A stretch of 29,570 bases of DNA, taken from IMG/VR virus record IMGVR_UViG_2778261297_000001. One strand, written 5' to 3'. A program made the translations under genes and the position numbers. Source of the stretch: a virus. Lineage: Duplodnaviria; Heunggongvirae; Uroviricota; Caudoviricetes. This document shows, in pieces, positions 3,121 through 20,803 of this stretch (position 1 is the stretch's first letter; the number at the start of each line of letters is the position of its first letter). The notes under the pieces were generated by a model that was not told where the DNA came from, did not search any database, and worked only from the letters and a program-made list of their open reading frames with translations.

Positions 3121-3711
3121 ATGTCTCGAATTTTTGCTTACTGTCGGATATCAACGCTGGATCAGACCACCGAAAATCAACGCCGGGAAATCGAAAGTGC
3201 AGGTTTTAAAATCAAACCTCAGCAAATAATCGAAGAACACATTAGCGGCTCAGCAGCAACCAGTGAGCGTCCTGGTTTTAACCGGTTGCTTGCTCGCCTG
3301 AAATGTGGTGATCAATTGATTGTGACAAAACTGGATCGCCTTGGTTGTAATGCAATGGATATCAGGAAAACAGTGGAACAACTGACCGAAACAGGTATCA
3401 GAGTGCATTGCTTAGCATTGGGGGGCATTGACCTGACCAGTCCAACAGGAAAAATGATGATGCAAGTAATTTCAGCAGTCGCTGAATTTGAACGAGACCT
3501 TTTACTTGAACGCACTCATTCCGGGATAGTAAGAGCCCGGGGCGCAGGGAAACGTTTTGGTCGACCACCTGTGTTAAATGAAGAACAGAAACAGGTGGTA
3601 TTCGAACGAATTAAGTCAGGTGTAAGTATAAGTGCCATTGCCCGGGAATTCAAAACCTCGCGGCAAACCATTTTAAGAGCCAAAGCAAAACTTCAGACAC
3701 CTGACATATAA
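3121..3711 (+). CDS. pinQ: Serine recombinase / DNA invertase PinQ (196 aa)
   Basis: Resolvase-invertase family features: N-terminal catalytic serine context [10 protein letters not shown]-terminal HTH; recalled as Qin/Rac Pin protein. Confidence 0.85.
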
Positions 3712-3808
3712 AAAATAATCTCGGTGTGAGATGCTTTACGTCTTCCAAGCCACCTTCCTTGCCGTAAATGGAAAGATACATCTAATTATAGAATTTATAT
3801 GTTTTACC

Positions 3809-6798
<2,990 letters not shown>

Positions 6799-9086: not shown

Positions 9087-9431
9087 GATGGTGTTAACTC
9101 CAGTCATCGCTGGCACTACCACTGCTGGTTCAGAGTTAAAAAAACTATGATTTTTTTCATGATGTTACCGTAGTATGTGAGTATCCATCGAATAGACACC
9201 AAGCAAAAAAGCTCCCGAAGGAGCCTTCATTTTCACTTTTTTAAATCCAACGACAGACGGCTGGCATTTAAGTATTGTGAAATATTATCAAATGTAATCA
9301 TCATTGATTTACAAAAGATACATTTTGCCCCGAAAGGATTCATGTCAGAAACATCAAAAGATGATGTTCTATACTGGGAACCATGACAACACGGGCATCT
9401 AAAGTGAATATGGTTTGTAATATTGTCTACC

Positions 9432-9644
9432 TCAAAGCGCCACTACATGAACAGCGGCAGGACCTTTAGGTCCGTTCTCAATACCAAATTCAACTTCCTG
9501 ATTCTCAGTTAATGTTTTGAAATCGTTGCTCTGAATTGCTGAGAAATGGACAAACACATCTTTGCTGCCATCTTTCGGCGTGATGAAACCAAAACCTTTT
9601 TCAGGGTTAAACCATTTCACTAAACCAGTCATTTTGTTAGACAT
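9432..9644 (-). CDS. cspI: Cold shock protein CspI (70 aa)
   Basis: CspA-family cold shock domain with RNP motifs KGFGFI and VFVHF; sequence recalled as CspI. Confidence 0.9.
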
Positions 9645-10005
9645 AATTATTACCTTTTGAAGAAATTAGCCCTTGGGCAGAATGGTCCGAAAAAAATATC
9701 AGAGAGAAAAACCAACAAGGAAATCTCAAGAGGTACAAATAATAAAATTATAACAATGACTGCTTCAGATAAATTTGTAACAAACCAGAACACCATTAAC
9801 GCATGATTAACCACCCATAGCAAGGATTACTTTTGTAAAGAAAAACACAGCAATGAAAGAATAGCTTTATTTATTAATAAAACGTGTCATTCTGATTAAG
9901 ACCTTTTATCTTACCCTTAAGATTTCAGGAATTTTGGCTCATGGAAGAGTCCTTTTTATTTAAATTTTACATTCCGCGATGTAAATGTTCCGATTTAATA
10001 TTACC

Positions 10006-19079: not shown

Positions 19080-20009
19080 TCAATCTTTTTTATCGGGATC
19101 AGGCTTCTTTTTAGGTAACTTCGGGGGCTTAACTTGCTGATGACTTTGCGTTCGGCGCGTAAGCCAGGGATGGTCAGCTTTAGGTTTAACATAGTATTTT
19201 GAGCGTAAATCAATACGGGCATTATCCACTCGTTCATGGACACTCTTTTCATCATCCAGTGGTATAGGCTCCGGGCCATCAACATACTTTTCCCAGCCCA
19301 GCGCTTTCCCGTCATACAGAACGTTAATTTCACCGTCAAAGTTCTCGCATACAGTAACAACCGAATGCCTAAGTCGATATCCCCGGCTCTCACTGCGTAC
19401 CTGAAACGCACTGCTTTTGTACTGGAAAGTGAGATTTTTAGACAGAACGCGCTTCGCCTGTAGGCTGAAGATATAACCCAGTTCCTCTTCAGAATGGTGC
19501 ACATCAAGATGAGCATTATCAGTAGTACGAGGCGACGTAGCGAACCGGTTGTTATAGGCTTCAATAAAAGTCGGCAACCATGCATTTGCTGTTTCAATAT
19601 CACTGATATTCTGAAGCCGCATTTCTTTGACCAGCCTGTCCTGTAGTGTCTGATTGGCGCGCTCTACCCGCCCTTTTGCCTGCGGGCTGTTGGCATGGAT
19701 TGGCTCGATGCCCAGTGTCTTTATCGCACGAGTGAACTGGGTCAGCTCACCTTCCCGCTCTGGGTTATTTACCCTGAATATACTGTGTCTATCAGAGTAG
19801 AGAGCGAGCGGTACGCCATGATCATTAAGGTAACCCCGGAGGGTTTCCATGTAAGCCCGGGTTGTTTCAGCAGGCACAAAACGCAACGCCATCAACGCAC
19901 TGGTGGCATCATCAATGAAAACGATCAGTGTACATCTGGGGCCTCGATTTTCAAACCAGTCATGAGGTGAGCCATCAATCTGGATCAGTTCACCGTAAGA
20001 TGGTTGATC
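19080..20009 (-). pseudogene. rve (DDE integrase-core) family transposase/integrase fragment, N-terminally truncated
   Basis: DDE signature ..IQIDGSPHDWF.., ..LALYSDRHSIF.., ..SPQAKGRVERANQTLQDRL..; reading frame extends upstream of annotated Met to a stop at 20010-20012 with no HTH domain; GC-richer than flanking prophage DNA. Confidence 0.7.
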
Positions 20010-20386
20010 TTACCCAGCAATAGTGGACACGCGGCTACCCGCGTTAGTAGCTAATCAACAAAGCTAAGGTTAGTAATTAAGGAGTTCTCCACGGGTGAGG
20101 TGGAGTGCGTGCGCCGGACACGGGTGAGCATCCGGCACTGACAGTTTACTGAAAGGATATTTCCCTGAAAAGTCAGACCATAACGCGAAAGCGCACGGCG
20201 AGGTAGCTGGTTCATAGATAGCCTGTCGTTAAATTTTCGTCGACCGTGCGCTTCCGGTTGTGGCAACCCGCGAAATGGCGCGGCGGTAAGTATGGCGGGG
20301 TTATTCCTTCCCCGTTGAGGACACCGGGTTGTCAGGTTGACCATACGCTTAAGTGACAACCCCGCTGCAACGCCCTCTGTTATCAA

Positions 20387-20444
20387 TTTTCTGGTGACGT
20401 TTGGCGGTATCAGTTTTACTCCGTGACTGCTCTGCCGCCCTTTT
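20387..20444 (+). ncRNA. dicF: DicF small regulatory RNA (about 53 nt plus terminator U-tail)
   Basis: Sequence TTTCTGGTGACGTTTGGCGGTATCAGTTTTACTCCGTGACTGCTCTGCCGCCCTTTTT matches DicF from memory, including the UUUCUGGUGACG seed and intrinsic terminator. Confidence 0.75.
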
Positions 20445-20614
20445 TAAAGTGAATTTTGTGATGTGGTGAATGCGGCTGAGCGCACGCGGAACAGTTAAAA
20501 CCAAAAACAGTGTTATGGGTGGATTCTCTGTATCCGGCGTTAATTGTTAACTGGTTAACGTCACCTGGAGGCACCAGGCACTGCATCACAAAATTCATTG
20601 TTGAGGACGCGATA

Positions 20615-20803
20615 ATGAAAACGTTATTACCAAACGTTAATACGTCTGAAGGTTGTTTTGAAATTGGTGTCACTATCAGTAACCCAGTATTTACTGAAGA
20701 TGCCATTAACAAGAGAAAACAAGAACGGGAGCTATTAAATAAAATATGCATTGTTTCAATGCTGGCTCGTTTACGTCTGATGCCAAAAGGATGTGCACAA
20801 TGA
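20615..20803 (+). CDS. dicB: Cell division inhibitor DicB (62 aa)
   Basis: Internal Met of ORF gives MKTLLPNVNTSEGCFEIGVTISNPVFTEDAINKRKQERELLNKICIVSMLARLRLMPKGCAQ; GAGGA RBS upstream. Confidence 0.75.
   Translation: MKTLLPNVNTSEGCFEIGVTISNPVFTEDAINKRKQERELLNKICIVSMLARLRLMPKGCAQ

Follow-up and report, generated by a model that had tools for sequence, protein, structure and literature searches.

A conserved structured RNA domain upstream of DicF in a Qin-type prophage, a putative leader RNA preceding terminators in phage early operons

DicF is among the oldest known bacterial small RNAs (sRNAs), and gels have shown a 190-nt precursor of it since 1990. This "long DicF", traced to Faubladier et al. 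1990 as cited in Ragunathan et al. 2023 (PMC10448788), has been confirmed: its 5′ end is dependent on RNase III, its 3′ end forms at the DicF terminator, and RNase E then yields the 53-nt DicF. The 190-nt form accumulates in stationary phase and upon RNase E inactivation, and both a terminated dicBF transcript of 1,146 nt and a read-through transcript of 1,608 nt exist (PMC10448788). Here, the region upstream of dicF was analyzed in a 29,570-nt stretch of viral DNA (IMG/VR record IMGVR_UViG_2778261297_000001; the window, whose positions are used throughout). Its segment 20010–20386, read on the + strand, had been flagged in an earlier note made from the sequence alone as non-coding and structured. 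The 3′ third of this segment very probably contains a conserved structured RNA domain of about 115 nt, which occurs in many phages without DicF and may be a cis-acting leader RNA.

A structured RNA in the early-operon leader is known from HK022, a lambdoid phage without N. Its put sites, putL and putR, are about 70–74 nt long, consist of two stem-loops, and adopt a V shape with a triplex (PMC9378689). According to a survey from 2025, N-less lambdoid phages with an early-left operon of the kind described below "may" use a put-like mechanism (PMC12315714). Given this "may", the early antitermination mechanism of the N-less lambdoid phages is an acknowledged unknown (PMC12315714).

The domain is composed of four helices (P1 to P4) and a possible pseudoknot (Table 1). 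Seventy distinct sequences were aligned with MAFFT and in model-guided versions (alignments A2 and A3). In the model-guided alignment, 95.9% of the cells are occupied by standard pairs. Both sides change in 13 of the 33 pairs, compared with 1–5 in controls with slid partners, and none of the 500 shuffles reached this number. Such pairs are seen in P4 (6 of 9), helix P1 (3 of 8), and P3 (3 of 5). For example, GGGUUGUCA/UGACAACCC in P4 is replaced by GGGUAACCA/UGGUUACCC in Izhakiella and by GUUGCCA/UGGCAAC in phage P1. One U-A pair of the pseudoknot is changed to C-G in the phage P1-like lineage, and U-G is seen in two sequences. Little or no variation is seen in the joining segments CGGUAAG, ACACC, GGUUGA, and GCYUNAG. 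The covariance model built for the domain (R1) scores 88–165 bits in the homologues, and the four helices were recovered independently in the minimum free energy (MFE) folds of the window and Izhakiella copies. Helix P1 has many U-G and G-U pairs, which would read as A-C mismatches if the opposite strand were the RNA; therefore, the RNA is read from the + strand. Based on these comparisons, helices P1, P3, and P4 are supported by compensatory changes and P2 by conservation only, while the pseudoknot is possible. P2 corresponds to the hairpin CCGCG-AAATGG-CGCGG of the earlier note, which is real and lies at 20268–20283, one base off the position given there.

The stem of P3 is free to change. 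Its loop (20301–20309 in the window) is pyrimidine-rich, with a UCC core in 38 of the 41 distinct versions, such as UUCCUU, UCCUCC, and CUCCUU. These sequences are anti-Shine-Dalgarno-like, although the 3′ strand of the stem is itself C-rich and partly confounds the resemblance.

Only about 100 nt of the sequence upstream of DicF (roughly 20268–20364) are shared widely with other phages. Phages P1 and P7 match this core at 77–82% identity. It is also seen in cdtI, twelve Stx2c-converting phages, 2H10, Ayreon, a Salmonella phage, an "Actinobacillus" phage, and P1-like plasmids. A pattern scan found at least 120 viral contigs with the element. Among the GTDB species representatives, 16 of the 19 pattern matches are genuine, and the other three, in unrelated phyla, are chance matches. 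The genuine carriers include Escherichia coli, E. albertii, E. ruysiae, another Escherichia species, Shigella, two Citrobacter, Trabulsiella, Serratia symbiotica, Erwinia tracheiphila, and Izhakiella. Three contigs of gut metagenome-assembled genomes labelled Bacillota, Veillonella, and Collinsella contain near-identical copies of the E. coli type or P1 type and are taken for mis-binned enterobacterial DNA. In the Actinobacillus phage vB_Apl-pPE4 (pPE4), the 3′ strand of helix P1 and the terminator are duplicated in tandem (L005 3104–3290). The early region of pPE4 (dicA, ydaT, kil, and exoVIII) is E. coli-prophage-like, so the stated host is doubtful.

The domain is more widespread than DicF. 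The Rfam model of DicF passes in only 2 of the 18 diverse loci carrying the element, and no match was found in P1, cdtI, or pPE4. In the phage P1 genome, a misc_feature "dicF-like region" (NC_005856, 68791–68892) overlaps the 3′ half of the domain and the terminator. The label implies a DicF homologue, but the shared part is the upstream domain and not DicF, as RF00039 gives no match there. No family of Rfam 15 covers the domain in the window, P1, cdtI, pPE4, or the 18 diverse loci, at either gathering or permissive thresholds; no tRNA or tmRNA was found in 19900–20700 by ARAGORN or over the domain by Rfam. In the literature consulted, the core sequence was found printed nowhere, dicF was found linked to neither a pseudoknot, P1, nor antitermination, and nothing relevant was found on the ban operon. 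The fold, the independence from DicF, the presence in P1 and N-less phages, and the partnership with terminators thus appear to be undescribed in Rfam 15 and the searchable literature.

The core is a conserved island between unalignable flanks in at least five contexts, P1 included. This bears on the possibility that the sequence is structured filler with no specific role, in which hairpins fend off Rho and give sites for RNase III and RNase E, and conservation reflects recent descent of the prophages. Untranslated stretches of operons are exposed to Rho, and the 340 untranslated nucleotides upstream of DicF would otherwise face it. Besides, most copies are more than 90% identical, and the fold z-scores are modest. 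However, filler would not be expected to keep a core of about 100 nt amid unalignable flanks, nor to maintain three helices by compensatory changes, and the unpaired segments, needless for filler, are the most conserved parts. This explanation is quite improbable.

The domain has a nearly constant partner downstream. A hairpin followed by a T-run begins 36–83 nt after the domain in 129 of the 133 loci (65 of the 69 distinct downstream sequences), and the hairpins are unrelated in sequence across loci. The linker from the domain to the terminator varies in length (10–45 nt) and sequence among homologues. The conserved unit is therefore the domain plus an intrinsic terminator, and DicF is the terminator of the Qin type. 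Its stem was located by the hairpin-plus-T-run scan as GGCGGUAUCAG (20403–20413) paired with CUG...UGCCGCC (20425–20439), in front of the T-run at 20441–20445.

This unit is located at the head of repressor-controlled early operons. In phage P1, the domain starts about 25–45 nt past the −10 element and C1 operator of the C1-controlled promoter Pban and is followed by GCCCAUCUUCGGGUGGGC and T6–8. No other annotated + strand promoter is present there before the tRNA genes, tciABC, and ban. In the N-less lambdoid phages, the domain is found behind the early-left promoter. In cdtI, the cI terminator is followed by a strong, near-consensus promoter (TTGACA-16-CATAAT). About 280 nt separate this promoter from the domain, and they hold no open reading frame (ORF) of more than 39 aa. 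Next come a terminator of −21.5 kcal/mol and the early-left genes through xis. The Stx2c-converting phage examined shows a cdtI-like layout, and in phage Evi and pPE4 kil and an exonuclease gene lie behind the domain. No N-like protein was found among the upstream ORFs, for which PHROGs gave only families of unknown function, or among the ORFs between promoter and domain of cdtI and the Stx2c phage. Directly 5′ of helix P1, the motif UGCUCU(C/U) is seen in five contexts (cdtI-, Citrobacter-, Erwinia-, Izhakiella-, and Trabulsiella-type copies), the flanks of which are otherwise unalignable. The motif appears to be boxA-like, and it hints at Nus factors. In Qin-type copies, this position is occupied by UGCGCUU, which forms one arm of the putative RNase III stem described below.

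The orientation, the position at the operon head, the constant terminator, the absence of an N-like gene among the ORFs searched, and the existence of both terminated and read-through dicBF transcripts suggest that the domain is a cis-acting leader RNA. It would govern the passage of RNA polymerase through the adjacent downstream terminator, by antitermination or attenuation, much as HK022 put or a nut-like site does. Termination would yield DicF or its analogue. The read-through product would cover the early-left genes, which are dicB or kil, exonuclease, and xis/int, or the tRNAs, tci, and ban in P1. Antitermination or attenuation is proposed tentatively, by analogy with these systems. It is possible, if doubtful, that the 115-nt domain represents a new class of cis-acting antiterminator or attenuator RNA of phages, unrelated to put, which would act on RNA polymerase alone or together with Nus factors via the boxA-like motif.

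Compared with putL and putR of HK022, the domain is likewise a structured RNA in the early-operon leader of N-less lambdoid phages with terminators downstream, and both are proposed to act in cis on the host RNA polymerase. Unlike put, the domain is about 115 nt long with four helices and a possible pseudoknot, and it is present in one copy per genome, not two. No membership in put was seen in sequence or structure when model R1 was searched in HK022, nor in arrangement: put copies follow both PL and PR, while cdtI has one early-left copy. Another mark of put is that it suppresses terminators independently of factors and is blocked by mutations in the β′ zinc-binding domain. Lambda-type nut sites, considered along with rrn boxA antitermination, share with the domain the position in the early leftward operon and, in some lineages, a boxA-like motif a few nucleotides 5′. 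In these sites, N binds boxB, a hairpin of 15 nt. No boxB-like hairpin is seen in that position at the domain, no N-like gene was found, and the motif is absent from the P1 copy, so that the combination of boxA, boxB, and an N-family protein, which defines a nut site, was not seen.

In cdtI-type loci, the terminator is directly followed by a long inverted repeat, ACAAAACAGAGAAGAGCA...UGUUCUUCUCUGUUUUGU (L004 3170–3265, with equivalents in L032, L046, L138, and L144). It shows compensatory differences between lineages and may be a structured leader domain or an RNase III site. A conserved small ORF considered at this place (LFTKQRRASPDDGLITQS...) was rejected, as its conservation follows the inverted repeat with its compensatory changes. 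In Erwinia, Izhakiella, Serratia, Trabulsiella, and one viral contig, the terminator loop itself contains a Shine-Dalgarno sequence and ATG or GTG (e.g., AGGAGAGCGAAGAUAAUGUUCUACCG; L144 4665–4735, with equivalents in L145, L133, L141, and L046). With these signals in the hairpin loop, the terminator may also sequester a translation start. The antisense RNA pair of IsrK and C4, both Rfam-significant, is found near the element in several phages: L004 540–728 (−), L082 1171–1359 (+), L052 4732–4920 (−), L135 963–1151 (−), and L177 2039–2227 (−). In L082, L052, and L135, the pair is on the strand of the element and downstream of it; in cdtI and the Stx2c phage, it is found on the opposite, rightward side.

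In the window, the RNA composed of the domain and DicF matches the published long DicF. The sequence in Fig. S1 of PMC10448788 corresponds to the window from about 20203 to 20440. When 190 nt are counted back from the DicF 3′ end (20440–20445), the 5′ end falls at about 20251–20256, which is the 3′ arm of the stem 20186–20198/20244–20256. This stem is the inverted repeat I1 (13 nt, 92% complementary), and the fold z of the stem-loop is −2.34. We infer that the RNase III cleavage making the 5′ end of long DicF falls in this 3′ arm. Long DicF then consists of a few nucleotides, the domain, the linker, and DicF, and the correspondence with the 190-nt RNase III-dependent RNA is partly shown. The hairpin CGC-GAAA-GCG of the earlier note is present (20184–20193) but is better seen as part of the 5′ arm of the inverted repeat. 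The whole segment is already known as the DicF precursor region, and the option raised there that DicF is processed from a structured leader was correct and already documented. The option of an unrelated structured RNA captures one aspect, since P1 and other phages have the module of the 3′ third but no DicF beside it. In the literature consulted on long DicF, the RNA is treated as a processing intermediate, and neither a conserved fold nor an occurrence without DicF or in P1 is described.

A terminator hairpin that ends in a U-tail is a typical Hfq module, and binding of DicF to Hfq is known from the literature. It might be considered that the domain forms the stable 5′ portion of a separate sRNA, represented by the 190-nt long DicF and by Pban transcripts of about 180 nt, which acts in trans or protects the 3′ terminator module. 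It could be a protein decoy, a sponge, or an Hfq-dependent regulator, with the terminator merely defining the 3′ end. Accumulation of the 190-nt RNA in stationary phase and on RNase E inactivation is consistent with this, as is the strong sequence conservation of the unpaired segments, and an RNA of about 180–195 nt would result in P1 from the Pban start to the T-run. On the other hand, the distance from promoter to domain is about 280 nt in the cdtI type and about 1 kb in Qin, so that a defined 5′ end needs processing, which is shown only for Qin. The 3′ modules vary freely, which leaves no shared seed there, and no target or binding partner is known. A trans-acting or protective RNA is considered rather unlikely; it is the main rival of the cis-acting leader.

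Riboswitches and leader attenuators likewise combine a conserved multi-helix domain, with invariant junctions, and an intrinsic terminator behind it, ahead of the genes of the operon. The domain could accordingly be a sensor, either a riboswitch aptamer or a site for a phage or host protein, with the terminator as the expression platform and read-through conditional on the ligand or factor. An alternative 10-bp pairing of 20261–20270 with 20325–20334 is possible in most copies (92% of the cells are paired). However, the alternative helices show no covariation, and one pair is broken in 21 of the 70 sequences. The alternative GGCGGU with ACCCC, proposed by RNAalifold, was rejected as it shows one-sided changes only. 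Unlike in riboswitches, the terminator lies outside the domain without overlap, behind a linker of variable length. No Rfam riboswitch class matches at E up to 10, and the gene content points to no plausible ligand. A sensor function is improbable.

Several observations weigh against the cis-acting leader and against the fold on which it is built. The folding energy of the core is unremarkable (124 nt, 20253–20376, z = −0.76). Diversity is low, with a mean column identity of 87% and an effective sequence number of 1.62, and the covariation therefore rests on few lineages; moreover, parts of the conserved segments were preset by the patterns with which the homologues were collected. The P1-phage, pPE4, and Shigella-type copies lack both helix P1 and the boxA-like motif. 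Scans for pseudoknot variants yielded five true elements, four with uncompensated single changes and one with G-U; the four uncompensated variants weaken the pseudoknot rather than strengthen it. A scan for rare variants of P4 gave only one new locus. Neither of two candidate switching helices, 20261–20270 with 20325–20334 and GCGGGG with CCCCGC, showed covariation beyond the shuffles, and no mutually exclusive antiterminator pairing was found. In the whole HK022 genome, with filters off, the best match of model R1 reached 10.5 bits (E = 0.18) at an unrelated place. The 47-kb cdtI genome contains no second copy beyond the single early-left one. No convincing further strong terminators were found downstream in the operons by a simple scanner, which misses the long-loop terminator of DicF, so this test is weak; as it stands, processivity is not required by the data. 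Finally, a trans-acting or protective role would account just as well for the fact that the 190-nt RNA accumulates stably.

With these points taken into account, 20257–20371 is still very probably a real conserved RNA module, as judged from comparison of the homologues. The complete explanation, in which an ordinary spacer contains this domain and the domain is a cis-acting leader RNA, is the best of those considered and is given a probability of about 0.4.

The identity of the surrounding sequence is clearer. The window comes from the E. coli strain EC09 (NZ_CM169492.1), which is identical (100%) to it over the full length of 19900–20500 by megablast. The downstream order is dicB, ydfD, exonuclease, excisionase, and integrase, followed by chromosomal rspB and rspA, and the locus is the left arm of a Qin-type prophage. 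A query of 20040–20445 (406 nt, spacer plus DicF) was matched in 4431 of 5426 complete genomes, about 80% of the complete E. coli genomes, and at 99.3% in K-12 derivatives such as NEB Turbo and JM83. Matches in other E. coli start at window 20036 and are 100% identical through DicF. In the intact strains, the annotated end of ydfC is the position equivalent to 20047; therefore, 20036–20047 is the end of ydfC and 20048–20388 is the normal spacer. For example, one intact locus (L001) has ydfA, ydfB, and ydfC ORFs at 3479–4012 (ydfC at 3794–4012), and the window matches it only from 4001 on; what remains is the spacer found behind ydfC in all intact copies. Thus ydfABC does not occupy the segment, contrary to what the earlier note assumed from K-12; these genes lay further upstream and are deleted here. 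No coding homology to ydfA, ydfB, or ydfC, intact or decayed, was found in the segment beyond the last 12 nt of ydfC.

The sequence upstream of the junction explains this difference. In strain WEM25, the megablast match, which reaches window 20037, stops 33 nt upstream of an annotated IS3 transposase. The 33-nt sequence 20005–20037 is the outer end of IS3, with its terminal inverted repeat, and is absent from an intact relative (L175). The first 28 nt of the segment (20010–20037) are accordingly an IS3 end remnant. The ISEsa1-family fragment on the left side adjoins ydfW in relatives. In the intact relative CFSAN064036, about 5.75 kb lie between the ISEsa1 fragment and the end of ydfC, and they contain Cro/CI-type and helix-turn-helix repressor genes and ydfA to ydfC. 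EC09 is annotated without dicC, dicA, ydfA, ydfB, and an intact ydfC. Based on the IS3 end at the junction and its absence from the intact relative, an IS3-associated deletion with the junction at 20036/37 is recognized, which took dicC, dicA, the dicB promoter region, ydfA, ydfB, and most of ydfC. No sigma-70-like promoter was found on the + strand of 19300–20700. As dicF and dicB of EC09 have lost the promoter region and the repressor genes, their expression is doubtful; either both are silent or, possibly, read-through transcription drives them.

The spacer 20048–20388 is almost certainly the ordinary untranslated ydfC-dicF spacer and not decayed coding sequence. The earlier note described the segment as GC-rich and dense in stop codons. 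Both features are present, but mild: GC is 0.536 compared with 0.456 for the window (88th percentile of 377-nt windows), and the plus-strand frames contain 5, 9, and 9 stops where about 5.5 each are expected (23 in total vs about 16.5). The description as non-coding and structured holds, with comparative support for the structure. Thermodynamic support is modest, and the real support is comparative.

Two coding interpretations are conceivable, a frameshifted ydfABC or a gene on the minus strand at 20051–20386. The minus-strand frame has a single stop where about 5.5 are expected, and an open frame of 111 codons is somewhat unexpected by chance. The Prokaryotic Genome Annotation Pipeline (PGAP) calls a 54-aa hypothetical protein on this strand in some genomes, and phage annotators also call ORFs there. 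However, the ORF has no Pfam match, and the frame of the window is open through the element in only 42 of the 70 distinct homologues. The distance between the invariant anchors flanking P3 falls into all three mod-3 classes (35, 29, and 6 of the 70 homologues), and substitutions in the element track base pairing, not codons. As to ydfABC, other strains contain intact ydfA, ydfB, and ydfC upstream of a spacer 100% identical to that of the window, and alignment revealed no frameshifted codons of these genes inside 20048–20388. Together with the non-triplet indels among homologues, this speaks against the decayed coding region considered before; the coding reading is refuted for ydfABC by these comparisons, and coding as a whole can be given almost no weight.

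In the 5′ part of the spacer, a direct 10-nt repeat, CACGGGUGAG, is present in each of two adjacent hairpins at 20087–20136 (repeat copies at 20090–20099 and 20119–20128). The block 20077–20149 is found alone in the podovirus-type phage vB_EcoP_phi367 at 91.8% identity (L179 2501–2573; about 70 nt), where a 37-aa ORF is called over it. At the 3′ side, DicF was confirmed directly behind the segment, as the earlier note had stated, and the Rfam scan proposed there found DicF just outside the segment and no family covering it. Inside 20010–20386, RF00039 (gathering threshold 48 bits) gave no match even at E up to 10. The segment thus belongs to the DicF precursor, as its upstream part, and does not include DicF itself.

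Table 1. Features of the dicF region of the window.
Feature	Position	Strand	Remarks
ydfC-dicF spacer of the dicBF operon (ydfC 3′ untranslated region, DicF 5′ extension)	20048–20388	+	341 nt; 100% identity in many E. coli
Conserved structured RNA domain, about 115 nt, four helices and possible pseudoknot (very probable)	20257–20371	+	70 distinct sequences
Helix P1	20257–20264 with 20364–20371	+	
Helix P2	20268–20272 with 20279–20283	+	conserved, without covariation
Helix P3	20296–20300 with 20310–20314	+	variable hairpin
Helix P4	20326–20334 with 20354–20362	+	
Possible pseudoknot	20290–20295 (GUAUGG) with 20341–20346 (CCAUAC)	+	in the P4 loop
A/U-rich single-stranded linker GCCCUCUGUUAUCAA-UU...	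20372–20388	+	3′ edge is the RNase E-made 5′ end of the 53-nt DicF
DicF sRNA (20389–20440) and T-run (20441–20445)	20389–20445	+	Rfam RF00039, 76.7 bits vs gathering 48
Long stem-loop, CGAAAGCGCACGG paired with CCGUGCGCUUCCG	20186–20256	+	apical part variable; inverted repeat I1, fold
Hairpins CUCCAC/GUGGAG (20087–20105) and GCCGGA/UCCGGC (20113–20136)	20087–20136	+	repeat search, MFE fold
Whole spacer plus DicF			fold z = −2.07
ydfC remnant, last three codons and TAG (TAC CCG CGT TAG)	20036–20047	+	all that is left of ydfABC
IS3 left-end remnant TGATCTTACCCAGCAATAGTGGACACGCGGCTA, deletion junction marker	20005–20037	+	WEM25 comparison
Truncated IS1202-like ISEsa1-family transposase pseudogene, left deletion flank	19350–19988	−	RefSeq annotation of EC09
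111-aa ORF, part annotated by PGAP in some genomes as 54-aa hypothetical protein	20051–20386	−	judged non-gene

The dicB 5′ leader (20452–20592, +) is structured and resembles STnc100 below threshold (34.1 bits vs gathering 47, E = 1.3e-5). Similar sub-threshold matches to STnc100 lie upstream of tciA in P1 (L003 4342–4461) and of kil in pPE4 (L005 3258–3442). The genes behind these leaders are annotated or suspected inhibitors of cell division, and the leaders may represent one leader RNA family in a diverged form. In the Aeromonas phage AP1 (MT713136.1, 254 kb), 68 nt at 249906–249973 are 98.5% identical to window 20378–20445, which could represent horizontal transfer or contamination. Elsewhere in the window, Rfam gives full-length matches to IS009 (221 bits, 3843–4041, −) and the cspA thermoregulator (114 bits, 9405–9789, −), which are taken as ordinary prophage features.

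The 115 nt upstream of DicF have so far been treated as a passive processing intermediate, and here they appear as a conserved folded module. The module is carried by phages and plasmids of the P1 type as well as by cdt- and Stx2c-converting phages. It stands at the head of early operons under repressor control, and an intrinsic terminator almost always comes after it. It can be considered a kind of structured leader RNA that precedes terminators in phage early operons, with a putative function. This suggests that DicF evolved from the terminator of a domain-terminator cassette. If the proposed cis-acting role is true, DicF would be recast as the terminator module of an older cassette, and the expression of early genes in N-less lambdoid phages (cdtI, Stx2c, and Qin types) and of the ban operon of P1 would be explained. 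The module is thus a concrete candidate for how N-less lambdoid phages may pass their early terminators.

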